Positions 3,012 to 52,264 of a DNA stretch of 64,000 nt are shown here, piece after piece. Under the pieces are notes generated by a model. That model did no database searches, was not told the origin of the DNA, and saw nothing but the letters and a program-made list of their open reading frames with translations. This DNA is from an uncultured Actinomycetota bacterium (GTDB lineage: Bacteria; Actinomycetota; Humimicrobiia; Humimicrobiales; Humimicrobiaceae). The stretch's first letter is position 1. Each line of letters begins with the position of its first letter. Location: positions 26,264-90,263 of the forward strand of contig CAYPYW010000002.1 in assembly GCA_964415365.1 (NCBI GenBank), in the 5' to 3' direction. Made by a program: the position numbers and the translations under genes.

Positions 3012-3042
3012 TTTACAATTATTATAAATATTCTGGTATAAT
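3012..3042 (+). promoter_or_regulatory. Candidate sigma70 promoter for the nuoE-like/nuoF-gltD operon
   Basis: TTTACA, then an 18-19 nt spacer, then TGGTATAAT (extended -10) about 70 nt upstream of the start at 3111. Confidence 0.3.
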
Positions 3043-3110
3043 TTTTGAAATAAATTGAAGTATAGTTTCCCTGAAATATTATTTTTTTGATTTCTCTGGA
3101 AAGGAATACA

Positions 3111-3605
3111 ATGTGGATTGCAGATCTGCCCAAATATAAGTTACAGCCCAAAGAAGTGAAAAGAATTGATGAAATAATAGAAAAATATAAAGGCAAAAAA
3201 GGAGCATTAATTCCAATTCTACAGAAAATTCAGGAACATATTAGTTTCATACCGGTAGAAGCTCAGAGAAGAGTTGCAGAAACATTAGATATCCCTGAAA
3301 AGGATGTTTATGGAGTAGTAACTTTCTATTCATTCTTTTCTATGGTTCCCAGAGGCAAGTATAATATAAGGGTTTGCCTGGGTACTGCATGTTTTGTAAA
3401 GGGTGGTAAAAGGATTTTAGATAAACTGGTTAAGGAATTTGGTATTGAACCAGGACAGACCACTGCCGATAGGAATTATTCATTACAAATTAATAGATGC
3501 CTCGGTGCCTGCGGACTTGCACCGGTAATTGTAGTGAATGATAGATTCTACCAGAAAGTTAACCCTGAAAAAGTTATTGATATCGTTTATTCCTGTAAAA
3601 AATAA
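3111..3605 (+). CDS. NuoE/HndA-like thioredoxin-fold [2Fe-2S] subunit (NADH dehydrogenase 24-kDa family)
   Basis: CLGTACFVKGG...CLGACGLAPV four-Cys motif with the TFYSFF region typical of NuoE/HoxE. The ATG at 3111 has AAAGGAA upstream; the track's longer ORF begins at an upstream TTG. Confidence 0.85.
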   Translation: MWIADLPKYKLQPKEVKRIDEIIEKYKGKKGALIPILQKIQEHISFIPVEAQRRVAETLDIPEKDVYGVVTFYSFFSMVPRGKYNIRVCLGTACFVKGGKRILDKLVKEFGIEPGQTTADRNYSLQINRCLGACGLAPVIVVNDRFYQKVNPEKVIDIVYSCKK

Positions 3606-3655
3606 AATTTTATCCGTTTTTCCATGCCGGAATATTTAAAAAAAGGATTAAGTAA

Positions 3656-6600
3656 TTGAGTAAAAAAACTCTAAAAATAAAAATAAAAGATGACCTTGAC
3701 AATATTAAAAAAGAATTAAACAGAAAAAAAGCTTTAAATCTTAAAGGAAATAAACACAGGATAACTGTACATCTCGGAACCTGCGGCATAGCTTCAGGCG
3801 CAGAAACAATATGCGATCTAGTCAAAAAAGCAATAACTTCTGGAAAACGCCATAAGATTGAGTTTACCACCTCCGGATGCGTAGGATTTTGTGCTCTGGA
3901 GCCTATGTTAACCATTGAATCATATAATTTACCCACAGTTACCTACTATAGTCTTGATAAAGATAAGATAAGAAAAATATTCGAAAGCCATATAGATAAT
4001 AGTGAGATAGCAGAGGAGCTTGAACCGATAACCACAGATTCCAGACTAGCGGACTTTTATAAATATCAGGAATCTAGAGTTTTAAGAAACCGGGGTAAAA
4101 TTGATCCTTTTAAAATTGAGGATTATATCGCAAAAGACGGTTACTTTGGTTTAGCCAAGGCTATTGAGATTGGCGATCCTGATAAGATCATTAAAACTAT
4201 TTCAGAATCAGGCTTAAGGGGACGTGGAGGTGCAGGTTTTCCGACAGGCAAGAAGTGGGAGCTTTGTAAAAATGCCCAATCCAGGAGCGGGGTCAAATAT
4301 GTAGTATGTAATGGTGATGAAGGAGACCCTGGCGCTTTTATGGACAGAAACCTGCTTGAATCCGATCCACATTCCATCCTCGAAGGAATGCTGATATCAG
4401 CTCTGGTGATTGGTTCAAACAAAGGTTACTTATATATAAGGGCAGAATATCCTCTTGCAGTTCGGACTGTGGAACACGCAATAAGACAGGCAAAAGATTA
4501 TGGTCTGATAGGAAAAAATATACTGGGCAGTGATTTTGATTTTGATGTTGAAATATATCAGGGCGCAGGCGCGTTTGTATGTGGTGAAGAAACTGCACTT
4601 ATAAGGTCAATTGAAGGCGGAAGAGGAATGCCAAAACCAAAACCGCCATTTCCTGCCAATGAGGGACTTTACTCGGAACCTACACTTATTAATAATGTTG
4701 AAACATTTTCAAACATTCCGCAGATAATTCTAAACGGGGCAAAATGGTTCAACAGTATTGGAACTTCAACAAGCAAAGGGACAAAGATATTTGCTTTAAC
4801 CGGAGCAGTTAATAACATTGGACTTGTAGAGATACCCATGGGTATGACTGTAAGAGATATCGTTTTTAAAATTGGCGGAGGAATAAGAAAAGGAAAAAAA
4901 TTTAAAGCAGTACAATTAGGAGGCCCATCTGGTGGATGTATTCCTGAAAAATTCCTTGATATTCCCATAGACTATGAGAAAGTAAAAGAAGTTGGCGCAA
5001 TAATGGGTTCAGGGGGGATGATTGTCTTAGATGAAGATACTTGCATGGTAGACCTTTCGAAATATTTTATGAATTTCATCCAGGAAGAATCCTGTGGGCA
5101 GTGTGTACCCTGTAGAATTGGTACTAAAAGGATGTTAGAAATACTGGAAAGAATCACTAGTGGAGAAGGAGAAAAAGGAGATATTGAAAAACTTGAAAAG
5201 CTATCAGCTGTAATCAAAGAAACTTCTCTCTGTGGGCTGGGAAAAACTGCTCCCAATCCTGTGATTAACACCATCTGCTATTTCCGTGAAGAGTATGAAG
5301 CACATGTGAAATATAAAAGATGTCCAGCCGTTGTATGTAAAGAGATAATTTCATCGCCATGCCAGCACGTCTGCCCAATTGATACAGAGGCTTCAGTTTA
5401 TATATCTCTAATTGCTAAAAGACACTTTAGGGAAGCATTTGATATCATTCTTAAAGACAATCCCCTGCCGTCTGTTTGTGCCAGAGTATGTCATCACCCC
5501 TGTGAATCCAAATGTCTGGCTGGTAAATGGGAGAGCCCGATCGCTATAAGGGCACTTAAGAAGTTTGTTTCTGAATATGCGTTAAAGGAAGGAATATACA
5601 CTAAACTAATAAAAGAGCAAAAAACGGATGGAGAAAAAGTTGCAATAATCGGCTCAGGGCCAGCTGGTCTAATGGCTGGTTTTAGACTCGCAGATAAAGG
5701 ATATAATGTTACTATTTTTGAGGAATTGGACGTTCCGGGAGGAGCATTAGTTGCTTGCATACCAGAATACAGATTGCCCAGGAATGTGCTTAATATTGAT
5801 ATAGAAAATATTAAAAATTCAGGTGTGAAAATTAAAACAAATACCAGAATAGGAGTAGATATACTATTCAGTGAACTTTTAAGCAACTATAAAGCTGTAT
5901 TCATAGCTACGGGAGCCCATAAATCACGGAAGTTACGTATTTTAAATGAAAATGCAGAAGGTGTTATAGATGCCATGAAATTTCTAAGAGATATAAACAG
6001 TAACAAGAAAGTCAGTATAGGTAAAAATGTTGGGATTATTGGTGGTGGTAATGCTGCTATAGATGCAGCCAGGACTGCGGCCAGAATCAAAGATTGCAAT
6101 AAAGTCCTTATAATCTATAGGCGGACAAGAAAAGAAATGCCGGCATTTGGTGAAGAAATAACCGCTGCTATTGAAGAAGGAATTGAAATCCAGCTCCTTA
6201 CGGCTCCCACTAAGATAATAGCTAAAAATGGAAAGGTTACAGGGGTTGAATGTATAAAAATGAAGTTGGGAGAAGTAGATGAAAGTGGCAGAAGGAAACC
6301 CATTCCTATCAAAGGTTCGGAGTTTATCATTAACCTGGATACTCTAATTGTAGCGATTGGAGAGGATCCTGATCTTGGTTTTCTTGATGAAAAAAACAAA
6401 ATAGGAGTTTCTAAAAGAGGTACAATAGTAGTGTGCCCGGAAACATTAGCTACAAATATCGATGGAGTTTTCGCAGGTGGAGATGTTGTTACTGGTTCAA
6501 ATACTGTAATAGATGCCATGTCAGCAGGAAAAATTGCTGCAGAGATGATTGATAAATATATTAAAGGGAAAAATTTAGCCAGAGAATATAAACCATCTAG

Positions 6601-6820
6601 ACCTTCAATGTATGTAGTACCCCCCACAGGGTTAGCAGAAAGAGATATTGAAGAAGTAATGAGACCTGAAATACCCTGTCTTCCCGTAAATAAAAGAATA
6701 AATAATTTCAATGAGGTTAATTTAAATATAACAGAAGAAGTAGCAGTAAGAGAAGCCAGACGCTGCCTCAGGTGTGACTTAGAGACTGAAGATGGGAAAA
6801 AAGTAATACTTGAAAAATAG
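3656..6820 (+). CDS. Fusion protein: N-terminal thioredoxin-like [2Fe-2S] + NuoF-like FMN/NADH/[4Fe-4S] domain + GltD/NfnB-like FAD/NAD(P)H oxidoreductase with two N-terminal [4Fe-4S] clusters
   Basis: GLRGRGGAGFPTGKKWE and ESCGQCVPCRIG are NuoF 51-kDa motifs. Downstream come CARVCHHPCESKC, then the VAIIGSGPAGLMAG and GIIGGGNAAIDAARTA dinucleotide folds of the GltD/NfnB family. 1054 aa, TTG start. Confidence 0.85.
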   Translation: MSKKTLKIKIKDDLDNIKKELNRKKALNLKGNKHRITVHLGTCGIASGAETICDLVKKAITSGKRHKIEFTTSGCVGFCALEPMLTIESYNLPTVTYYSLDKDKIRKIFESHIDNSEIAEELEPITTDSRLADFYKYQESRVLRNRGKIDPFKIEDYIAKDGYFGLAKAIEIGDPDKIIKTISESGLRGRGGAGFPTGKKWELCKNAQSRSGVKYVVCNGDEGDPGAFMDRNLLESDPHSILEGMLISALVIGSNKGYLYIRAEYPLAVRTVEHAIRQAKDYGLIGKNILGSDFDFDVEIYQGAGAFVCGEETALIRSIEGGRGMPKPKPPFPANEGLYSEPTLINNVETFSNIPQIILNGAKWFNSIGTSTSKGTKIFALTGAVNNIGLVEIPMGMTVRDIVFKIGGGIRKGKKFKAVQLGGPSGGCIPEKFLDIPIDYEKVKEVGAIMGSGGMIVLDEDTCMVDLSKYFMNFIQEESCGQCVPCRIGTKRMLEILERITSGEGEKGDIEKLEKLSAVIKETSLCGLGKTAPNPVINTICYFREEYEAHVKYKRCPAVVCKEIISSPCQHVCPIDTEASVYISLIAKRHFREAFDIILKDNPLPSVCARVCHHPCESKCLAGKWESPIAIRALKKFVSEYALKEGIYTKLIKEQKTDGEKVAIIGSGPAGLMAGFRLADKGYNVTIFEELDVPGGALVACIPEYRLPRNVLNIDIENIKNSGVKIKTNTRIGVDILFSELLSNYKAVFIATGAHKSRKLRILNENAEGVIDAMKFLRDINSNKKVSIGKNVGIIGGGNAAIDAARTAARIKDCNKVLIIYRRTRKEMPAFGEEITAAIEEGIEIQLLTAPTKIIAKNGKVTGVECIKMKLGEVDESGRRKPIPIKGSEFIINLDTLIVAIGEDPDLGFLDEKNKIGVSKRGTIVVCPETLATNIDGVFAGGDVVTGSNTVIDAMSAGKIAAEMIDKYIKGKNLAREYKPSRPSMYVVPPTGLAERDIEEVMRPEIPCLPVNKRINNFNEVNLNITEEVAVREARRCLRCDLETEDGKKVILEK

Positions 6821-6850
6821 TACAATAGGAAGTTTAAATGGTATGAAAAA

Positions 6851-7678
6851 TTGGAAGACCAAGTCTCAAAATTAGGTAAAAAAATTAAAATTAAAAAAAT
6901 TAAATCCTCTCACGGCAGCACCAATCTAATTGATGTAATTCCCCTTGAATTACTTCTAACTATTTTTCTAAACGGTAAACATATTTCGACAATTTCGTGC
7001 TCGCCCGCTAATCTGATCGAACTTACAATTGGTTATCTAGCAAATAATGGTTATATTGTAAGTTATTCAGATATAGAGCTCTTAAAAATTTGTAGTAATA
7101 ATATAAATAAAGCTACCAGCAGAAATGATCTGACTTCAAGAATTGAAGTTAGCACAGCCGCTGGTAAAAATAATATCATATGCCCGGATAGCTTAAAATT
7201 CATACCTTCAGGATGCGGTAGTATTGATGATTTTGTACTTAAAAAAAGTTTAAAAAAGATAAAGAGCAATATCAGAACTTCATCAGATATTGTGCTTGGC
7301 TTAAATAAAAAAACTACAGACCATCAAAAGTATAAAAGGGAATTTGGAGGTTTACATAGTGCTGCTCTGTTCAATAAAGATGGAAATTTATTAAATCTAT
7401 TAGAGGATATTGGAAGACATAACTGTATAGATAAAATAGCCGGCTATATGCTTATAAAAAAAATACCTGCTCAAGATAAGATTATATTTACCACGGGTAG
7501 ATTAAGCATTGATGTAATCTGTAAAATTTGTAGGATGCAAATTCCAATTATAGTTACCAACTCTTCGGTAACTTTTAGTGCTGCCCAGCTTGCAAAAAAA
7601 ATAAATCTAACCGTTATTGGTTATGCCAGAAGCGGTAGATTTAATATTTACTCAGGATCAAGGAGGATACAGAGGTGA
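6851..7678 (+). CDS. fdhD: Formate dehydrogenase accessory sulfurtransferase FdhD
   Basis: GGLHSAALF...DIGRHNCIDKIAGY motif of the FdhD/NarQ family; TTG start; 4-nt overlap with the next gene. Confidence 0.8.
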   Translation: MEDQVSKLGKKIKIKKIKSSHGSTNLIDVIPLELLLTIFLNGKHISTISCSPANLIELTIGYLANNGYIVSYSDIELLKICSNNINKATSRNDLTSRIEVSTAAGKNNIICPDSLKFIPSGCGSIDDFVLKKSLKKIKSNIRTSSDIVLGLNKKTTDHQKYKREFGGLHSAALFNKDGNLLNLLEDIGRHNCIDKIAGYMLIKKIPAQDKIIFTTGRLSIDVICKICRMQIPIIVTNSSVTFSAAQLAKKINLTVIGYARSGRFNIYSGSRRIQR

Positions 7679-8565
7679 ATCTAACAGGAGTAATATTAGC
7701 AGGTGGTAAAAGCAGCAGATTCGGCTTCAACAAGTTAAAAATCAAAGTAGATTCAGTACCATTATTTATAGACCAGATTTTTAAATTAAGCTTTTTTTGT
7801 GATGAAATAATAATAAGCACCTCAAAAAGCAACTATTCCATTATTTTTTCTGAGTTAAATAAAATCAGAATATATCAAAAAAAATACAACTTCGAAAAAA
7901 TAGGAACTTCTAATCCAAAAATAAGCTTTAAAGATTTCCTTAAAAGAGTCACAAAACCTCTAAATATAAAAATTATTCCAGATGAAAGTAACTGTAGTAG
8001 CTCAACTATAAAAAGTCTTTCAAATGTTACCAACCCTGGAGGATTTAAATCAGATTATGATACAATTGGACCTATAATTGGTATTTATTCAAGTCTTATA
8101 AATGCTGCATATTTTTATTCCATAATCGTTGCATTTGATATGCCTTTTATTTCTTACAATTTGCTAAAACATTTGATTTATGAATCCGGAATAAATATTG
8201 AAAAAACAAGCATAGATAAATCAGTAACAATATCCAATTATCCCGGAAAAAAAGATGCTTGCATAATTAAGAGTGAAAAAGGGTTTGAAGTTCTCTGTGG
8301 ATTATACTCAAAGGGCTGTGTTGATATTTTAAAAGAGAATATTAAAAAACAAAAATATAAAATATCGGATATTTTTACTAACCTGGATATCGAAATCATT
8401 TCAAGCAAAAAATTAGAATCATTTAAAATTGATAATCTCAATTTTTTTAATATAAACCTGGTACCGGATTATTATAAATTTAAAAATATATGGCAAAATA
8501 AAAAGATTGCATCGGGTACTAAAAAATCATTTACGGAAGCATGGAATGATTTTTTCTTCAGGTAA
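7675..8565 (+). CDS. MobA-like molybdenum cofactor guanylyltransferase-family protein (longer than canonical MobA)
   Basis: N-terminal GVILAGGKSSRFG and a later IVAFDMPFIS motif fit the MobA NTP-transferase fold. GTG start 8 nt after AGGAGG; translationally coupled to fdhD. Confidence 0.55.
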   Translation: MNLTGVILAGGKSSRFGFNKLKIKVDSVPLFIDQIFKLSFFCDEIIISTSKSNYSIIFSELNKIRIYQKKYNFEKIGTSNPKISFKDFLKRVTKPLNIKIIPDESNCSSSTIKSLSNVTNPGGFKSDYDTIGPIIGIYSSLINAAYFYSIIVAFDMPFISYNLLKHLIYESGINIEKTSIDKSVTISNYPGKKDACIIKSEKGFEVLCGLYSKGCVDILKENIKKQKYKISDIFTNLDIEIISSKKLESFKIDNLNFFNINLVPDYYKFKNIWQNKKIASGTKKSFTEAWNDFFFR

Positions 8566-8618: not shown

Positions 8619-9245
8619 TTAAAGAAGCTCAGAATGAATCTGTGGAATTCTATCTATTCCATAATTGGAAGGGAAAACACCTGTAGGACAAATATCCATA
8701 CATTCCATGCATTTTTCACAATATTTGAAATAGGAAGACTCGGGAATAAATATAACCTTTTTATCTGTTCCTCTTCCTACAAAACCCACAGCATTATTTC
8801 CCTTCACTTCTTTGCAATATCTTACACAAAGTCCGCAGAGAATACAGTAATTATTTTCCTTTTTAAACCTGGTCCCGCTTAACTTATACTTTCTGGCAAG
8901 TTTCTTTATCTCAGGATTAAAGGGAAACAATGCAAGATATAATTCCACCAGATTTTTTCTGATTTTTTCTACCGCAGGACTCTCCGTCTGGACTATGAGA
9001 CCTTCCTCTGCCGGGTAGGCACAGGATGCAACTATCCTTGATCTGCCCTTTCTTTCCACCTCAACAAGACACAGCCTGCAGGCACCGTGAGGTTTTATCT
9101 TTTCGTGATAGCATAAAGTAGGAACATGAATCCCTGCCTTCTTTGCAGCTTGAAGTATGGTATCACCGTGATTTATTTCGACATTTTTGTCATTCATGGT
9201 TAGATTAATTTTTTTCCTACTTGAATCTTCTTTTTTATCATTCAT
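8619..9245 (-). CDS. NuoG/HndD N-terminal-domain-like ferredoxin, [2Fe-2S] plus two [4Fe-4S], with no catalytic domain
   Basis: LCYHEKIKPHGACRLCLVEV (2Fe-2S), CILCGLCVRYC and CEKCMECMDICP (4Fe-4S). Start placed at the internal ATG 9245, which has AGGAGA 8 nt upstream; the track ORF extends to 9293. Confidence 0.7.
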   Translation of the reverse strand: MNDKKEDSSRKKINLTMNDKNVEINHGDTILQAAKKAGIHVPTLCYHEKIKPHGACRLCLVEVERKGRSRIVASCAYPAEEGLIVQTESPAVEKIRKNLVELYLALFPFNPEIKKLARKYKLSGTRFKKENNYCILCGLCVRYCKEVKGNNAVGFVGRGTDKKVIFIPESSYFKYCEKCMECMDICPTGVFPSNYGIDRIPQIHSELL

Positions 9246-9309
9246 AATTATGTTCTCCTGACCTTTATATTCTCTTGATCTTTTATAAATCAACTTTAAG
9301 TCTTTTAAC

Positions 9310-11223
9310 CTACGACTCCCCTTTCTCCAGCACTACTCCCTCTTTAACAAGGCCTGTCTTCTTTTCGATAGCACTGTATTTTTCCGGACAAGCTCCTATA
9401 CAGGATCCACATTTAATACAAATTTCGCTGTCTATAACATGTGGCTTTTTACTCTCACCTTTTATTGCATCCACCGGACATACTTTTACACAACTCCCGC
9501 AACCGACACATTTATTTTTATCAATAACATAATTTATCAGTGGCCTGCACATTTTTGCCGGACACATATTGTAATAAATATGAGCTTCATATTCCTCTTT
9601 AAAATATTTTAGCGTGGTAAGCACAATATTCGGGGCAGTGGTACCCAAAGCACACAGAGAAGCTTCCTTGAGCAACAGCGATAAGTCCGCCAGAAGTGTT
9701 AAATCTTCCTCTCTGCCCTTCCCTTCCATTATTCTCTCATAAATATAAAGCATCTGCCTTAAACCTTCTCTACAGGGAACACACTTTCCACATGACTCGT
9801 CAGCTAAAAATTTCAGGAAGTAATGAGCCACATTTACCATACAGGAAGATTCATCCATAACCACCATACCTCCGGATCCCATCATTGATCCCGCTTTAGT
9901 CAATTCATCAAAGTCCACAGGAAGGTCAAGCAGTTTCTCAGGAATCACTCCACCCGAAGGTCCACCGGTCTGTACCGCTTTAAATTTTTTGCTGTCCTTA
10001 ATTCCACCGCCAATTTTATAAATAATATCCCTTAAGCTTATTCCCATTGGGACTTCGACTAACCCCGTGTTTTTGACTTTACCAACAAGTGAAAATATTT
10101 TTGTCCCGGTACTATCCTTAGTTCCCATGCTCCTGAACCAATCAGCACCATTTTTTATGATTAACGGAACATTTGCAAAGGTTTCTACGTTATTTAGATT
10201 AGTCGGTTTACCCCAGAGCCCGCTTACAGAAGTATGTATATATTTCAACCTGGGCTCTCCTACACTGCCTTCAATAGCAGTAGTAAGTGCGCTTGATTCC
10301 CCGGATACATAAGAGCCAGCACCTTTATGAACTTTAATATCAAAATTAAATCCGGAACCCAAAATATTTTCTCCGATCAATCCACACTCTCTGGCCTGAT
10401 TTATAGCAATATTTAAATTCTCTACCGTTAACGGATACTCCTGTCTGACATAAACAAATCCCATATTAGAGCCAATAGCATATGCCCCAATCATTAAACC
10501 TTCCAGAACGCTGTGGGGATTCCCCTCTAATATTCCTCTATCCATATACGCACCTGGATCCCCTTCATCCGCATTAACGATTATATACTTTGGTTCACCT
10601 TCTGCACTCCTGGTAGTTTCCCATTTCACACCTGTCGGAAAACCGCCTCCTCCCCGGCCCCTTAAGCCAGATTTCTTCACTTCTTCTATAACCCCTTCCG
10701 GACTCATCTGCCCGAGGACCCGAGCAAGAGCCTGATATCCACCCATCCTGATGTAATCATCAATACTTCTTGAATCTATCTTTAAATGGCTATAAAGAAG
10801 AACCCTTTTCTGGAATTTATAAAAAGGAATATCAGATTCCTTAATTATCGGATTTCCATTATCATCCTTATAAAGAAGCCTTTCTACCACTCCCCCCTTT
10901 AAAGCCTCGCCGATTATTTCAGCAACATCTTCTTTCTTCACCCTCAAATAACAAATATCCTTTGGATAAACAACCACAATCGGACCCATCTCACAATACC
11001 CATGGCAGCCTGTCCTGCGGATAATAATTCTACCTTTTTCTTTCATATGATTTCTTTCAATCTCATCAAGCAAAGCAGAATAGATATCCTCCGAACCATA
11101 AGCCTTACAGCCAGGTCCGCTGCATATAGAAAATACTATATCAGCACTATCCAGTCGCTCCTGAAATTCCTTTGCCCTCTTTTGTAAATCCTGTAGAGAA
11201 TTTATTTTGTTATTAACGGTCAT
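9310..11223 (-). CDS. NuoF-like subunit of HndC/HydB type: N-terminal thioredoxin-like [2Fe-2S], FMN/NADH site, C-terminal 2x[4Fe-4S] ferredoxin
   Basis: GLRGRGGGGFPTG, ESCGKCVPCREG, CVGCGSCVKVCP and CIKCGSCIGACP motifs; GAAGGAG sits upstream of the ATG. Confidence 0.85.
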   Translation of the reverse strand: MTVNNKINSLQDLQKRAKEFQERLDSADIVFSICSGPGCKAYGSEDIYSALLDEIERNHMKEKGRIIIRRTGCHGYCEMGPIVVVYPKDICYLRVKKEDVAEIIGEALKGGVVERLLYKDDNGNPIIKESDIPFYKFQKRVLLYSHLKIDSRSIDDYIRMGGYQALARVLGQMSPEGVIEEVKKSGLRGRGGGGFPTGVKWETTRSAEGEPKYIIVNADEGDPGAYMDRGILEGNPHSVLEGLMIGAYAIGSNMGFVYVRQEYPLTVENLNIAINQARECGLIGENILGSGFNFDIKVHKGAGSYVSGESSALTTAIEGSVGEPRLKYIHTSVSGLWGKPTNLNNVETFANVPLIIKNGADWFRSMGTKDSTGTKIFSLVGKVKNTGLVEVPMGISLRDIIYKIGGGIKDSKKFKAVQTGGPSGGVIPEKLLDLPVDFDELTKAGSMMGSGGMVVMDESSCMVNVAHYFLKFLADESCGKCVPCREGLRQMLYIYERIMEGKGREEDLTLLADLSLLLKEASLCALGTTAPNIVLTTLKYFKEEYEAHIYYNMCPAKMCRPLINYVIDKNKCVGCGSCVKVCPVDAIKGESKKPHVIDSEICIKCGSCIGACPEKYSAIEKKTGLVKEGVVLEKGES

Positions 11224-11290: not shown

Positions 11291-12268
11291 CTAACTTAAT
11301 TGTTTTAATATTTTCTTTAAATAACTGGCCGAGGGATTACTGTAATACTTATTGTCAACCATAACTACCGGCCCCAACGCACAGCAACCAAGACAATTTA
11401 CAGTTTTAAGAGTAAATCTGTAATCACTGGTTGTATCTCCCGGTTTTACCCCCAGAACACTGGTAATTCTCTGAAGTAAATTCATCGCTCCCCTAACATG
11501 ACATGCCGTACCCATACAAGCTACAATGGAATATTTACCCTGTGGTTCCAAATTAAAATATTTGTAAAAAGTAGTAATACTGTAGATATCTGTAAGAGGA
11601 ATATCCAACTTCTTACCAAGATAAAGCAGAATATGTCTGGGAAGCCAGTTATACTCATTCTGAATATCCAGAAGTATTTGTATCAAATTACTTTTTTCAC
11701 AATTGTGGTGATCAATTACTTTATCTACTTCCCCAAAATCTTCCATTGCTTCTTCCAAAACTAACTCCTTTTCTCTCTTTATTTTATCTAAATCGCCAAG
11801 CCACTCAGTCAGCTGGCTCTGAATCACATTTATTCTCTCCATATCCCTATGACTCTCAAAAGCACTTTCATGACCGGTACCCGATGGGTGGCTAATATCA
11901 CCTCTTATCTTACTTCCAGTATCTACTTCCCTCTTATTTTTATCCGGACTATATTGTTTCGGTTTGGAACCGGCACTCCTCAAACCAAGGCCTGGCCTCT
12001 TCTTTATCTTATATTTTGCTTTTTTGTCCTTATAACCAGTTCTGTCTATCAATCCCTCTTTTTCCAACAGTTTTAAAGTCCGATAAATTGTAGCCTGCCC
12101 TATCCTGGGATGTTTTTTATGAGAGAGAAAGAATAATTCCTCCGCATCCAGTTCACCAGGACTTTTCAGCAAAATATCCAGAATAACCATCCTGGTTCCG
12201 GTAAGTCTGAACCCGCTCCTCTTTATTCTCTGTTTATAGGTATCGATATCTTTTTTATTATTCCCCAT
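11291..12268 (-). CDS. Fusion of a Fur-family winged-helix DNA-binding domain with a NuoE/HndA-like [2Fe-2S] thioredoxin-fold domain
   Basis: N-terminal RLTGTRMVILDILLKSPGELDAEELF...IGQATIYRTLKLLEKEGLI matches the Fur/PerR DNA-binding domain and is missing the Fur metal/dimerisation domain. A K-rich linker follows, then the NuoE motifs CMGTACHVRGA...CLGCCALGPV. Confidence 0.8.
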   Translation of the reverse strand: MGNNKKDIDTYKQRIKRSGFRLTGTRMVILDILLKSPGELDAEELFFLSHKKHPRIGQATIYRTLKLLEKEGLIDRTGYKDKKAKYKIKKRPGLGLRSAGSKPKQYSPDKNKREVDTGSKIRGDISHPSGTGHESAFESHRDMERINVIQSQLTEWLGDLDKIKREKELVLEEAMEDFGEVDKVIDHHNCEKSNLIQILLDIQNEYNWLPRHILLYLGKKLDIPLTDIYSITTFYKYFNLEPQGKYSIVACMGTACHVRGAMNLLQRITSVLGVKPGDTTSDYRFTLKTVNCLGCCALGPVVMVDNKYYSNPSASYLKKILKQLS

Positions 12269-12292
12269 CCTACAGGTTTGGATGATTATTTA

Positions 12293-12315
12293 TTGATAAT
12301 GATAATGATTTTCAA
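12293..12315. promoter_or_regulatory. Fur-box-like operator (GATAAT hexamer repeats) 25-47 bp upstream of the Fur-DBD::NuoE gene
   Basis: TTGATAATGATAATGATTTTCAA resembles the Fur consensus GATAATGATAATCATTATC. Confidence 0.5.
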
Positions 12316-12373
12316 TTTTATCCGTAATTATACTCCGGGGATTTATCCTGTCAACAAATGTATATTACAGTTA

Positions 12374-13189: not shown

Positions 13190-13353
13190 TTTGAAATACT
13201 GGTAATTCGCTTAACATAATAAAAGTCTTCGGAATTATTATAATGATTATTAAATTTTATAAAAGAAGGGTTCAAAAAATTTTTTTTATTAAATTTTATG
13301 GCATATTTGTTATACAATTATAAAAATTTTGTTATAATTCAATAAACTTGATA

Positions 13354-14319
<966 letters not shown>

Positions 14320-42284: not shown

Positions 42285-42638
42285 TTATTTAAATTGCTTC
42301 TTGTGTTTTTTTATCCAAACCCGATAAAGGAGTACAGCAGATATGGATAACACTGTACTAATAGAAAAAGGGATCAAAAATTCCTTTGATAAGGGATTCG
42401 CTATAGCATCGCCGATCAAAACAATGGGAATCATTCCAGGTATCAACCCTAGCAAAGATCCTGTTAAAAACTGATAATATTTTGTATTTGTTGCGCCAAA
42501 AAACATGCTCATCAAATCTGTTGGAAAACCAGGAACAAGTAAATCTTTTAAAGTGGTTAGAACTTCCCCAATATCCAGAAAGCCATTTACTACTTCTGGA
42601 TTATAGTAGTCCTCTCTTCTTGATATCATCTCTATCAT
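42285..42638 (-). pseudogene. DedA/TVP38-family C-terminal fragment (117 aa), probably a truncated gene
   Basis: VPGFPTDLMSMFFGATNTKYYQFLTGSLLGLIPGMIPIVLIGDAI matches the DedA C-terminal half. The N-terminal half is absent and the 5' end overlaps the upstream sensor gene. Confidence 0.4.
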
Positions 42639-44706
42639 TTAGAACTCTATCTATGAAAACTTTGACCAGATTTGGATCAAATTGAGTTCCCGAGCATCTC
42701 CTAAGTTCCTCTAGGGCCTCTTCCTCACTAACTGCCTTTTTATATGGTCTGTCATTAGTCATAGCATCATAAGCATCAACTATTGATATTATACGGGATA
42801 TAAGTGGTATTTCATTCTTCCTTAAGCCATTAGGGTATCCAGAACCATCCCAATTTTCATGATGAGACAATATCGCCCTGGCTATTGGAGCTAACTGTAA
42901 AGATGACTGTGAAATACGATATCCTATTTCAGGGTGTTTTTTAACAAGCTCCCATTCTTTATCATTTAACTTTCCAGGTTTCAAAATAATACTATCCGCA
43001 ATAGCTATTTTTCCTATATCATGCAGGGTAGCCAAAAGGTTTAGCTCGTCCAATTGCCCATCAGTTAATTTAAGTTTCTCACCCATTTTTTGCACATAAT
43101 TTCTCATTCTTGCCATGTGCTCTTTTGTCTCATAATCTCTTTCCTCCAGAGCTTTTTCTAGAGAAGATATTATTGAGCTACGGGTACTTTGCTGCTCTAT
43201 TAATTTGTGTCTACACATCATATCTTCAGCTTCCTTAATAATATTTTTTATGTCTTGGGAAGGATTTTCCTTTGTAGAAACTCCTATAGAAATACTTAAA
43301 GGTATCATTTCGGAAGTGGTTTTATTACAATATCCTTTCATTCGCTCAATAATTTTTAAAGTGTTTTTTTCATCAATATTCGGTAAAATTATTATGAATC
43401 CACCCCCGCCCCATCTGGCAATAATATCTTCCTTTCTAAAGCACCCCTTTAAAAGTTTCGACATTTCCTTTATTATTTCATCCCCTTTAATATAGCCAAA
43501 AGCATCATTTATTAACTTGAGTCCATTAATGTCTCCAACTACAATACTGAAGGGTAGATGCCTTTTAGTATCTAATCTCCCCAATTCTTCTTCAAAATAG
43601 GCTCGATTATAAAGGCCTGTCAAATCATCATGAAAACCCATGTATTTTACTTTGTCCTGGGCTTCTTCCAGATCATCGAGCATATTATTTATATCAGCAG
43701 CAAGAACAGAAATTTCATCATTGCCACTGGTGGCTACTCGTTTAGATATATCCTTTTCCTGTCCAATGCGTTTAATATCATTTTTTACTTCCAGTAACCT
43801 CCTTAAAAATAGCTTATTCAATAATATCAACGTCAGGACACCTAAAATTATACATGCTACAAAAATTATAGATGTATAAGTTGCTAAGGTAGTTATACTC
43901 TGTCTGTAAATACTTCTGGGCATATTGATTCTCAATAATATAGCCGGGCTGCCAAAAATATCTTCCAATACTGTATAACCAGCAACATTCTCTCTATCTA
44001 AGGCTGCAATATAAAAAGGATTTTCGTCATTTATCTTAGATAATACATCATCCAATCCACTAAATTCATCAGGGTGGTCTAACCGGAAAACATCAATGGA
44101 TAACTCTGTTCTTTCGGCTAAATTACTAGTTACGGATTCATCTAAATACCTGCCAAAAATTAGTGCCCCTCTTACGGGACCCCCATCATTGCTTTTTATA
44201 ATTGGCTCTGATGTCACCAACATTGGATTATCTGGCGATAATATAATTCCGGAAACACTGCTATCTGTTTCAATATGATTAACAAGAATACTGCCATAAG
44301 ATACAAACTCATATATATCCTCAGGAACTGATATTTCTTCCTCACTCTCAAGATCAAAAGCCTTCTCATAAATTATATCCCCTGATAGGTTCACAAACAT
44401 CATTAAATTAAGATCTAGATTAGTAAAAGTCTCATCGACCAGATTAGAATCAATATAGTCCTTATCACTATTATTGATAAATTCATAGGTATCGTCCCAT
44501 GCAGACCAATCCGCATTTAAACAAGACAGTTCATATATATCATTGGATAATGTGTTTACAACCCTATTAATGTTTTCGTTAACAGTTTGCTTTTCTATTT
44601 CTAAAAATCTTTCTTGTATTACTGAATGGGAAATTGCCAGAGTGACTACTATCGTTCCAATAAAGAATACACTTAATATAATGGTTATCCTTTTATTAAT
44701 GGTCAT
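42601..44706 (-). CDS. Membrane sensor with periplasmic domain, degenerate GGDEF domain (GGGGF) and HD-GYP phosphodiesterase domain
   Basis: Two TM segments flank a roughly 260-aa extracytoplasmic domain. GGDEF fold is present with signature RWGGGGF. HD-GYP: HDIGKI...HHENWDGSGYP. Confidence 0.8.
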   Translation of the reverse strand: MTINKRITIILSVFFIGTIVVTLAISHSVIQERFLEIEKQTVNENINRVVNTLSNDIYELSCLNADWSAWDDTYEFINNSDKDYIDSNLVDETFTNLDLNLMMFVNLSGDIIYEKAFDLESEEEISVPEDIYEFVSYGSILVNHIETDSSVSGIILSPDNPMLVTSEPIIKSNDGGPVRGALIFGRYLDESVTSNLAERTELSIDVFRLDHPDEFSGLDDVLSKINDENPFYIAALDRENVAGYTVLEDIFGSPAILLRINMPRSIYRQSITTLATYTSIIFVACIILGVLTLILLNKLFLRRLLEVKNDIKRIGQEKDISKRVATSGNDEISVLAADINNMLDDLEEAQDKVKYMGFHDDLTGLYNRAYFEEELGRLDTKRHLPFSIVVGDINGLKLINDAFGYIKGDEIIKEMSKLLKGCFRKEDIIARWGGGGFIIILPNIDEKNTLKIIERMKGYCNKTTSEMIPLSISIGVSTKENPSQDIKNIIKEAEDMMCRHKLIEQQSTRSSIISSLEKALEERDYETKEHMARMRNYVQKMGEKLKLTDGQLDELNLLATLHDIGKIAIADSIILKPGKLNDKEWELVKKHPEIGYRISQSSLQLAPIARAILSHHENWDGSGYPNGLRKNEIPLISRIISIVDAYDAMTNDRPYKKAVSEEEALEELRRCSGTQFDPNLVKVFIDRVLNDRDDIKKRGLL

Positions 44707-51264: not shown

Positions 51265-51765
51265 CTATTTTATTTCTTTAAACATCTCTTTTGGATTTCC
51301 ACAGATAGGACACCTGTCCGGTGCAGCGCCCTCTACAGTATTTCCACAGACCTGGCATACAAAAATAGGAGTATCTTCATTGTTCCCTATATTGTCCAGA
51401 TATTTCTTATATAACTCAGCATGCACCTGTTCGACCTTATTGGCAAAAACAAAACTTTCCCTTGCTTTTTCCGCATTTTCACTTTTTGCCTCCTCAATCA
51501 TTCTAGGATACATTTCCTTAAACTCAAAAGTTTCTCCACTTACCGCAGCTTTTAGATTTTCCTCTGTGGATTTAATCCCATCCATTGCTTTTAGATGGTT
51601 GAGCGCATGCACAGTTTCTGCTCCTGCCGCAGCTCTAAAGAGTTTCGCTATCTGGGGATAGCCATCCAGGTCAGCTTTTCTTGCAAAAGCTAGATATTTT
51701 CTATTTGCCTGTGATTCCCCTGCAAAGGCATCTGCCAGATTTTTTAAAGTTTTATCACCCGTCAT
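51265..51765 (-). CDS. rbr: Rubrerythrin
   Basis: Ferritin-like diiron motifs ...AGESQA...ETVHA...E.KEM.., and the C-terminal rubredoxin-like CQVCG...CPICG. ATG at 51765 has GGAGAGGAG upstream; the track ORF is over-extended. Confidence 0.85.
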   Translation of the reverse strand: MTGDKTLKNLADAFAGESQANRKYLAFARKADLDGYPQIAKLFRAAAGAETVHALNHLKAMDGIKSTEENLKAAVSGETFEFKEMYPRMIEEAKSENAEKARESFVFANKVEQVHAELYKKYLDNIGNNEDTPIFVCQVCGNTVEGAAPDRCPICGNPKEMFKEIK

Positions 51766-51796
51766 CTTTTTTCTCCTCTCCTCCATTAAATTTATA

Positions 51797-52210
51797 TTAT
51801 TTATCTCTTTTACATTTATCACATATACCCTCAAAAATAATCTTTGAGTTTAATATATTAAACTTCCTGCTTATGCTTTCCGGTACTTCTATACAGTAGG
51901 AATCATCGTGGATATCTATAATATTATCACACTTCATGCACCTGAAATGATAATGTCTGTTTCTATCACCATCGAATCTCTTCGGTTCACCGGGAAGCGT
52001 CAGAATATCGGCAACACCTATTCTAGAGAAAGTCATAAGCGTTCTATAAACTGTATCGAAAGAAATGGTGGGAAATATTTTTTTTACTTTTTTATAAAGA
52101 ATTTCTGCACTGGGATGGTCCTTTGACTCCACCAACTCTTTATAAATTAAACTCCTTTGGGGTGTGACTTTTAAATTATTCTCTTTACATAATTTAATAA
52201 AAGATTCCAT
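51797..52210 (-). CDS. perR: Fur-family regulator, PerR-like
   Basis: KVTPQRSLIYKEL...HPSAEILYKKV...ISFDTVYRTL DNA-binding domain, plus HYHFRC..C...C..C metal sites. Confidence 0.75.
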   Translation of the reverse strand: MESFIKLCKENNLKVTPQRSLIYKELVESKDHPSAEILYKKVKKIFPTISFDTVYRTLMTFSRIGVADILTLPGEPKRFDGDRNRHYHFRCMKCDNIIDIHDDSYCIEVPESISRKFNILNSKIIFEGICDKCKRDK

Positions 52211-52240
52211 AGCAATTCCCTGGACTCTAAATAGTTAAAA

Positions 52241-52264
52241 TTATTATATAATAACAATTATTAT
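52241..52264. promoter_or_regulatory. Per/Fur-box-like palindrome upstream of perR
   Basis: TTATTATATAATAACAATTATTAT: TTATTAT/ATAATAA half-sites arranged as abutting and 3-nt-spaced inverted repeats, 30-55 bp upstream of the perR start. Confidence 0.4.

Follow-up and report, generated by a model that had tools for sequence, protein, structure and literature searches.

A Fur-type DNA-binding domain fused to a BfuC subunit is matched by a conserved Fur-box array in the promoter of its own operon

We analysed a 64,000-nucleotide stretch of DNA from an uncultured Actinomycetota bacterium of the Humimicrobiaceae (assembly GCA_964415365.1, contig CAYPYW010000002.1, positions 26,264 to 90,263), hereafter referred to as the window. 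On its minus strand, one gene (bfuC) encodes a 325-residue protein that joins the DNA-binding half of a Fur-family regulator to a complete [2Fe-2S] subunit of the NuoE/HydC/BfuC family. The gene heads a bfuC-bfuB-bfuA operon, and a Fur-box-like hexamer array lies just downstream of the promoter of this operon. The array is conserved and specific in all orthologues, and in sister BfuC families the putative operator follows the N-terminal domain. These two observations support autoregulation, and we propose that the BfuC subunit probably doubles as the repressor of its own operon, in the manner of a trigger enzyme. Electron-bifurcating enzymes of the HydABC/Bfu type have a central role in anaerobic energy metabolism, and the control of their synthesis is poorly known.

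Results

The fusion combines a Fur DNA-binding domain with a complete NuoE/HydC/BfuC domain

The anatomy of the fusion was established from alignments of 19 and of 91 fusions and from an AlphaFold2 model. The gene and its parts are:

11291..12268, minus strand: fusion gene (bfuC), an open reading frame of 325 aa with an ATG start
11999..12268, minus strand: Fur-type winged-helix DNA-binding domain, residues 1-90 (Pfam, match to Magnetospirillum Fur, AlphaFold2)
11867..11998, minus strand: Lys/Ser/Asn-rich linker, residues 91-134, of variable length and predicted to be disordered
11708..11866, minus strand: long amphipathic helix, residues 135-187, conserved and modelled as a single helix by AlphaFold2
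11291..11707, minus strand: NuoE/HydC/BfuC domain, residues 188-325 and the stop codon (Pfam PF01257, PDB matches)

In Pfam searches, PF01475 (FUR) matched residues 18-90 with E 5e-15, over positions 2-75 of its 121-position profile, and PF01257 (2Fe-2S_thioredx) matched residues 182-324 with E 5.6e-46, over positions 2-144 of its 145. NCBIfam agreed, with Fur models matching the N-terminal part and HoxE/NuoE models the C-terminal part. Since the FUR match ends at profile position 75, the fusion carries the DNA-binding half of Fur alone. The C-terminal alpha/beta dimerisation domain of Fur is absent from the protein, where the disordered linker, the helix and the NuoE domain are found instead. 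The regulatory metal site (His/Glu/Asp) and the structural Cys4 zinc site are also absent, the domain that carries them having no counterpart in the fusion. A preliminary description of this DNA had read the gene as a chimera of a Fur-like N-terminus, without the Fur metal and dimerisation domain, and a complete NuoE/HndA-type domain; the profile matches bear out each part of that reading.

The model of the DNA-binding domain consists of four helices and a beta-hairpin wing over residues 2-88, with a predicted local distance difference test score (pLDDT) of 83-90, and its mean pairwise identity among fusion homologues is 49%. The domain aligned without gaps to Magnetospirillum Fur (MgFur, 4raz; E 2.7e-14). 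When MgFur is bound to DNA, K15 recognises the minor groove, Y56 touches thymines and R57 a conserved guanine, while T17, R20 and T54 make backbone contacts to DNA (PMC4506495). MgFur residues K15, T17, R20, T54, Y56 and R57 correspond to R21, T23, R26, T60, Y62 and R63 of the fusion. The last five are invariant in 91 fusions, and position 21 is R or K in all 19 fusions shown in full. The conservation of these DNA-contact residues indicated that the domain has been kept competent for Fur-box-type DNA; as judged from the alignments, the fused domain is under purifying selection with its DNA-reading residues intact.

The linker that follows has a pLDDT below 50 over residues 92-138 and a mean pairwise identity of 14%; its length differs between homologues and the reading frame is always kept. 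The long helix is better conserved (53% mean pairwise identity), with the sequence pattern ERIxxIQxQLxxWLxDLNKIKREKExxLED. Its heptad a/d positions are 64% hydrophobic versus 22% elsewhere, making the modelled helix a candidate coiled-coil or dimerisation element.

The NuoE domain, a helical bundle and a thioredoxin-like fold, is the best-conserved part of the fusion (71% mean pairwise identity, pLDDT above 90). The [2Fe-2S] ligands C251-x4-C256-x35-C292-x3-C296 are invariant across 91 homologues, and this CX4CX35CX3C motif is the sole cysteine cluster in the protein. The best sequence match in the PDB was the HydC/BfuC chain 7p5h_C (E 5.5e-52), and the top Foldseek matches were the HydC/BfuC chains 7p5h_C, 9mqx_C, 9n5u_C and 8a6t_C (probability 1.00). 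Among solved structures, its nearest relatives by both sequence and fold belong to bifurcating hydrogenase, Nfn and aldehyde oxidoreductase complexes, in which they are the HydC/BfuC subunits. With the fold, the cluster ligands and the partner gene all present, the fusion is a member of the NuoE/HydC/BfuC family.

Both Pfam domains were found in one frame in all of the top 120 database clusters (46-100% identity). These are clusters at 90% identity built from NCBI, JGI, ENA and Logan assemblies, and the family extends beyond them; a further 54 fusion open reading frames were found in independently fetched loci. Where sources were named, they were Ca. Hydromicrobium americanum, Ca. Humimicrobiaceae and "Actinobacteria/Actinomycetota bacterium", pointing to the class Ca. 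Humimicrobiia. The family is compact, few representatives being left at 50% clustering. In an exhaustive search of representatives with the DNA-binding domain, its nearest relatives were ordinary full-length Fur proteins (35-47% identity); long matches considered as other fusions of the DNA-binding domain alone proved to be tandem Fur duplications or a SecDF-Fur run-on. A word-indexed search with the DNA-binding domain alone returned 5 candidates. A contig scan with the full-length alignment returned mainly ordinary NuoE, with two full fusions among the matches listed, and it brought up the receiver-domain relatives described below.

A specific Fur-box array is conserved at the fusion promoters

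The promoter region of the operon contains the following elements:

12349..12354, minus strand: -35 hexamer TTGACA
12327..12332, minus strand: -10 hexamer TATAAT
12293..12315, minus strand: Fur-box hexamer array (putative operator) TTGATAATGATAATGATTTTCAA, which reads TTGAAAATCATTATCATTATCAA on the gene strand

The two promoter hexamers, separated by 16 nt (12354..12327), match the sigma-70 consensus at 12 of 12 positions, and the array starts 12 nt downstream of the promoter. The array core TGAAAATCATTATCA at 12300-12314 has one mismatch to the 7-1-7 consensus TGATAATNATTATCA, and a second 7-1-7 site overlaps it at 12294-12308. A family 21-mer consensus matched the 64 kb once at one mismatch, versus 0.03 matches expected by chance. 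Near-matches at 13238, 13349, 30033 and 3013 were rejected as further operators, since they either carry T in place of G/C where Arg reads the site or fall within coding sequence; they are at chance level for a window of 36% GC. Spurious AT-rich box matches at 14172-14204 come from an (AAT)n run, which encodes poly-Asn in the C-terminal extension of a ParA/Soj-like ATPase (open reading frame 13348-14319).

A TTGACA-N16-18-TAnnnT promoter was present in all 46 non-identical fusion upstream regions. In these regions an array of the form TGATAATCATTATCA(TTATCA)n, made of two to five hexamers, follows or overlaps the -10 element, and the flanks are unconserved. Measured from the end of the -10 hexamer, the start of the array falls between -8 and +9 nt, with five regions as exceptions. 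Three of these outliers are mis-called starts or array picks, and the other two (L005 and L101) contain a complete promoter-box unit about 120 nt upstream of the start. Running from the -10 element into the beginning of the transcribed sequence, the array has the position of a repressor site.

At a threshold of two mismatches, a 7-1-7 Fur site was found in 44/44 non-redundant fusion promoters (18 perfect, 14 with one mismatch, 12 with two). Control scans of 182 other upstream regions from the same loci gave none at one mismatch or fewer and seven at two. The fusion loci, 336 kb in all, contained 44 sites with at most one mismatch; 41 of these were located at a fusion promoter, 39 of them within 200 nt upstream of the called start and 2 at mis-called starts. 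The loci of ordinary NuoE operons from other phyla, 920 kb in all, gave only two sites at this threshold, one of which came from a broken fusion. The Fur-box previously noted at 12293-12315 is specific, and it is conserved at all orthologous promoters.

The fusion gene heads a stand-alone bfuCBA operon

Two genes follow the fusion gene on the same strand:

9310..11223, minus strand: bfuB, a NuoF/HydB-like flavoprotein of 637 aa (Complex1_51K, SLBB, NADH_4Fe-4S and two Fer4 domains)
8619..9293, minus strand: bfuA, a small HoxU-like ferredoxin of 224 aa (Fer2_4, Fer4_Nqo3, HoxU model)

In addition to these domains, BfuB has an extra N-terminal thioredoxin-like 2Fe-2S domain (2Fe-2S_thioredx, residues 27-106) and a C-terminal 2x[4Fe-4S] ferredoxin domain. 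BfuA is predicted to bind 2Fe-2S and 4Fe-4S clusters and has no catalytic domain. The cluster had been described as NuoE/NuoF/NuoG-like; the first two assignments hold, and the third gene encodes a HoxU/BfuA-like ferredoxin, not a full NuoG. The fusion heads NuoF-like operons in relatives as well: bfuB is the next gene after the fusion in the window, as it is in 31 of the 32 loci with room for it, and bfuA is present in 29 of the 30 loci with room for bfuA. The fusion is the only BfuC in its operon.

In the Bfu family, BfuB contains Complex1_51K, SLBB, NADH_4Fe-4S and 4Fe-4S ferredoxin-type domains including extra clusters, BfuC an IPR002023-type domain, and BfuA at least 2Fe-2S and 4Fe-4S ferredoxin domains (PMC9304861). 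The three window proteins agree with this definition at the level of Pfam domain content. Judged by this content, the operon encodes a stand-alone BfuCBA, a predicted electron-bifurcating core of the HydABC-like kind in which BfuA is small. The genes next to the operon differ between the window, L164 and L165, and in none of the three was a catalytic subunit linked to it, whether of hydrogenase, formate dehydrogenase or another enzyme. FdhA and hydrogenase were considered as catalytic partners and none was found in the window. Small-BfuA modules act as NADH/ferredoxin input modules of larger complexes (PMC9304861), an example being BamGHI of benzoyl-CoA reductase (PMC9304861; bioRxiv 10.64898/2026.04.10.717634).

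The putative operator changes with the N-terminal domain in sister BfuC families

The long helix is homologous in three types of BfuC, the Fur-type fusion and two sister families with other N-terminal modules, and marks this subfamily. Proteins of the first sister family (about 240-256 aa, e.g. L140:2689-3441) come from Chloroflexota/Dehalococcoidales (Dehalococcoidia) where the source is named. They were found in L137, L140, L142, L144, L146, L148, L151, L152, L154, L155, L156, L161, L162, L006 and L165. Their N-terminal module of about 50 residues (MAKRKTKSTFIGLKVTSEQAETLARLQ...TKTEVLLRGLELLA) is modelled by AlphaFold2 as an extended segment and two helices, followed by a disordered linker, the long helix and the NuoE domain. 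Pfam searches with full proteins and N-terminal peptides and a PDB profile search did not recognise the module, the best match being NikA-like (E 0.11). The modelled topology fits a ribbon-helix-helix fold and suggests a DNA-binding domain of that type. All 14 scanned genes of this family are preceded by a sigma-70 promoter and then by GTWAAAC-N1-GTWAAAC at -18 to -33, typically GTTAAACGGTAAAAC, a motif found nowhere else in 1.32 Mb of sequence. L165, which lies outside the 14-locus motif scan, has a single GTTAAAC upstream.

In the second sister family, a receiver domain (Pfam E ~1e-28) precedes the helix and the NuoE domain in proteins of 355-381 aa (e.g. L015:5509-6612). Members from Acidobacteriota, a Chitinispirillaceae metagenome-assembled genome and metagenome contigs were found in L007, L012, L015, L018, L138, L139, L143, L145, L147, L149, L153 and L158. 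The gene heads NuoF-like and HoxU-like genes, as directly seen in L018, where the C-terminus of an NtrC-type activator is encoded upstream. By eye, most upstream regions long enough to judge contain a sigma-54-like TGGCA-N6-TTGC element, and three match the strict TGG-N-A-N-N5-TTGC pattern. No Fur-like sites were found in these upstream regions.

Across the three families, the type of cis-element changes with the N-terminal domain while the enzyme part stays constant. Of the available arguments for pairing the operator with the fused domain, rather than with a global regulator unrelated to it, this co-variation is the strongest.

Public records name the fusion proteins NADH-quinone oxidoreductase subunit E, NAD(P)H-dependent oxidoreductase subunit E or hydrogenase. 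The deposited proteins P0394 (OFW64947.1, 151 aa, 'hydrogenase') and P0343 (155 aa, Dehalococcoidales) are without the DNA-binding module; the module is missing from some public records of both the Fur-type and the ribbon-helix-helix-like family because the called start is an internal codon.

Stand-alone Fur-family proteins encoded in the same loci

The window also encodes a full-length Fur-family protein (51800-52234, minus strand), best matched by PerR, directly upstream of rubrerythrin (51265-51834). A PerR-box-like sequence, TTAAAATTATTATAT at 52235-52249, abuts the start of this gene.

A different Fur paralogue of 161-167 aa adjoins the operon in about half of the fusion loci, in a subclade about 50% identical to the window protein. 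It is divergent and upstream in L103, L113, L114, L117, L118, L121, L129 and L134, and downstream in L106, L111, L112, L116, L123, L124, L126, L128 and L164 (e.g. L164:13906-14394). The paralogue keeps two CxxC motifs but not the His-rich regulatory site usual in the family. Its recognition helix, ATVYRTL, is shared with the fusion, which makes cross-recognition of TGATAAT half-sites plausible. In both gene arrangements, the conserved palindrome in the paralogue's promoter is another one, TTGATAAT-aGTAACAATTATTAC-TATCAA, suggesting that the hexamer array is not simply the operator of the paralogue. The subclade of the window has a YkuD gene upstream of the operon and no linked paralogue, and the array is still kept. 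Extra TTGATAATCA half-sites were observed just upstream of or overlapping the bfuC -35 hexamer in L103, L117, L118, L121, L125, L129, L131 and L134, mostly loci with a divergent Fur paralogue.

Other genes in the neighbourhood

An FdhD/MobA cluster that includes a second NuoE-NuoF pair, this one unfused, adjoins the operon both in the window and in Ca. Hydromicrobium. In the window it occupies 3013-8565 and comprises an unfused NuoE of 172 aa (3087-3605), then a 1054-aa NuoF-GltD/NfnB-like fusion (3656-6820), FdhD (6851-7678) and a MobA-like gene (7675-8565). Upstream of the unfused NuoE gene, 3013-3027 reads TTACAATTATTATAA, which resembles a PerR box. No catalytic subunit of formate dehydrogenase was found in the window. 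Elsewhere, NuoE-like proteins with a C-terminal Cys-rich, zinc-ribbon-like extension (CPRCNHSL...CPYCH...CPxC) are encoded at L072:1210-2043 and L073:3463-4488, and the window encodes a 701-aa CHASE4-HAMP-GGDEF-HD-GYP signalling protein (42601-44706) that is unrelated to the fusion.

Discussion

We propose that the BfuC subunit of a BfuCBA NADH/ferredoxin oxidoreductase core gained an N-terminal Fur-type DNA-binding domain and now acts on its own promoter. Two or more DNA-binding domains would be brought together by the long helix, forming a coiled coil, and/or by the oligomeric enzyme. They would then bind the multi-hexamer GATAAT/ATCATT array by avidity, just past the -10 element of a strong sigma-70 promoter. 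Binding would block transcription, so that the iron-sulfur-rich complex would throttle its own synthesis in proportion to the amount of subunit made. The domain architecture, the conservation of the contact residues, the place of the fusion in the operon, the conserved and specific operator and the co-variation of operator and N-terminal domain are direct observations. To these the proposal adds three steps: the fused domain, rather than another Fur-family protein, would occupy the box; its binding would repress transcription; and the helix or the complex would supply dimerisation.

Several points weigh against this autoregulation. The Fur DNA-binding domain stands alone, without its dimerisation surface, and the geometry of two such domains on a 7-1-7 site is unenforced because the linker is long and disordered. 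The assignment of the sister module to the ribbon-helix-helix class derives from predicted topology only. Fur-family genes with an ATVYRTL helix exist in these genomes, the one in the window at 51800-52234, and a paralogue with this helix adjoins the operon in about half of the loci. Finally, the box scan covered about 64 kb of this genome and the local neighbourhoods of its relatives, and a genome-wide Fur regulon sharing the box is possible.

These last points bear on the possibility that a stand-alone regulator binds the box as it would any Fur-family operator, which would place the operon under iron or peroxide control. The candidates would be the PerR-like protein that the window encodes, the 162-aa paralogue where it is linked, or an iron Fur whose gene lies elsewhere, and the fused domain would be secondary, as a competitor for the site, a tether for the enzyme or a relic. 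The box does fit the generic Fur consensus, and the scans covered a small part of any genome. However, the box tracks the fusion, being present at 44/44 fusion promoters and nearly absent from 920 kb of unfused NuoE loci. It is kept in the subclade of the window without a linked paralogue, and the promoter of the paralogue contains another palindrome. The purifying selection on the fused domain and its intact DNA-reading residues also speak against a secondary role, as do the sister families, in which another N-terminal domain goes with a different and equally specific element. In addition, repression of an iron-sulfur enzyme by holo-Fur under plentiful iron would be physiologically odd, from what is generally known of Fur regulons. 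A stand-alone Fur-family protein is therefore a real but less likely binder than the fusion, and we regard this explanation as unlikely overall.

A broader reading is that the BfuC subfamily carries interchangeable N-terminal modules (the Fur winged helix in Humimicrobiia, the ribbon-helix-helix-like module in Chloroflexota, the receiver domain in Acidobacteriota and others), each attached through a linker and the common long helix, and that in the DNA-binding versions the open/closed movement of the enzyme, driven by NADH or by reduction, or its oligomeric state gates operator occupancy. We consider this combination tentatively, as a possibility of rather low probability.

We also consider it rather unlikely that the fusion is mainly a sensor-regulator, in which the redox state or occupancy of the [2Fe-2S] cluster, or a domain movement driven by NADH, would switch DNA binding. 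This idea draws on the presence of a DNA-binding domain and a redox cluster in one polypeptide, on the conserved long helix directly between the linker and the NuoE domain, and on the receiver-domain version, which suggests a signalling use of the N-terminal position. It has moreover been proposed that BfuC's thioredoxin-like domain moves between closed and open positions on NAD(H) binding (PMC9304861; bioRxiv 10.64898/2026.04.10.717634). Against it, the 45-residue linker is disordered, unconserved and variable in length; it would be a poor signal transmitter, which argues against rigid or direct allostery, and no residue pattern connects the cluster to the DNA-binding domain. The preliminary description had favoured such a redox or assembly sensor and offered a structural subunit that also autoregulates as its alternative. 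The latter fits better, since the fusion is the only BfuC in its operon and its NuoE domain retains 71% identity.

A frameshift, a mis-assembly or the merging of two adjacent genes by the caller is extremely improbable and effectively refuted as the origin of the fusion, since the identical single-frame architecture is conserved in more than 120 clusters from independent assemblies and in the 54 open reading frames fetched independently, with a linker that varies in length yet stays in frame throughout.

The autoregulatory BfuC that we propose resembles several known systems in part. Like other HydC/BfuC/NuoE subunits, it has a C-terminal region of 145 residues that covers the full PF01257 domain and contains the four cluster cysteines, and a BfuB-type flavoprotein and a small BfuA follow it. 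It differs from them in about 185 extra N-terminal residues (the Fur DNA-binding domain, the linker and the long helix) and in an operon without a linked catalytic module. In the literature, we found no description of a DNA-binding domain on a NuoE/HydC/BfuC subunit and no described Bfu subunit with one; a literature match to "winged helix" concerned BamF of benzoyl-CoA reductase and not a DNA-binding domain on BamG.

With Fur, PerR and Zur (PF01475), the fusion shares the winged-helix domain with equivalents of MgFur K15, Y56 and R57, as well as a cognate-looking operator with GATAAT hexamers and a 7-1-7 site at a repressor position. Unlike them, it is without the C-terminal dimerisation/metal-sensing domain and the regulatory-site residues. 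Because this domain is absent, the fusion is not a full Fur-family metalloregulator, and both its dimerisation and its signal input must have another source. Binding of a [2Fe-2S] cluster has been reported for E. coli Fur, an interesting comparison to a Fur DNA-binding domain carried on a true [2Fe-2S] domain.

The closest functional parallel may be PutA, a proline dehydrogenase whose N-terminal ribbon-helix-helix domain represses the put genes and whose flavin redox state sets the choice between DNA and membrane. In PutA and, at the level of sequence, in the fusion, a redox enzyme polypeptide has a DNA-binding domain at its N-terminus and an operator in its own promoter; the sister BfuC family apparently has a ribbon-helix-helix-like domain as well. 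The enzymes are unrelated, the DNA-binding domain of the fusion is of the Fur type, and control by the state of the enzyme is established for PutA only. Iron-sulfur transcription factors such as IscR, SoxR, NsrR/RsrR and FNR also combine a DNA-binding domain and an Fe-S cluster in one protein, and a cluster-dependent switch is conceivable in the fusion. In these regulators, which are not homologous to it, the cluster is within or right beside the scaffold of the DNA-binding dimer, whereas the cluster of the fusion is in a separate enzyme domain past a disordered linker and has an electron-transfer role in a complex. Rex, a stand-alone NADH/NAD+-sensing repressor of hydrogenase and fermentation operons in anaerobes, joins a winged helix-turn-helix to a Rossmann fold. 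It offers a possible analogy, in that a redox-enzyme operon would be repressed according to how reduced the cell is, but it is not an enzyme subunit and has another operator.

Collectively, the comparisons presented here indicate that enzyme-repressor fusions as such are known and that a DNA-binding domain on BfuC appears to be new, with an unusually clean comparative-genomic case. Plain NuoE or "hydrogenase" names, and sometimes truncated gene calls, hide this domain in current annotation. A Fur DNA-binding domain can work, or at least stay under selection, without its metal-sensing and dimerisation domain, which bears on how Fur specificity and activation evolved. If enzyme state proves to gate the operator, the bifurcating complex would be a redox sensor that sets its own transcription, a new Fe-S/flavin class of trigger enzyme, and the Fur DNA-binding domain would have a wholly different signal input. 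In these bacteria, a core bifurcating subunit itself bears the domain of a transcription factor and has a matching operator in its own promoter, and the two sister versions, one apparently with another DNA-binding fold and one with a receiver domain, point to a general and so far undescribed regulatory wiring of these complexes.

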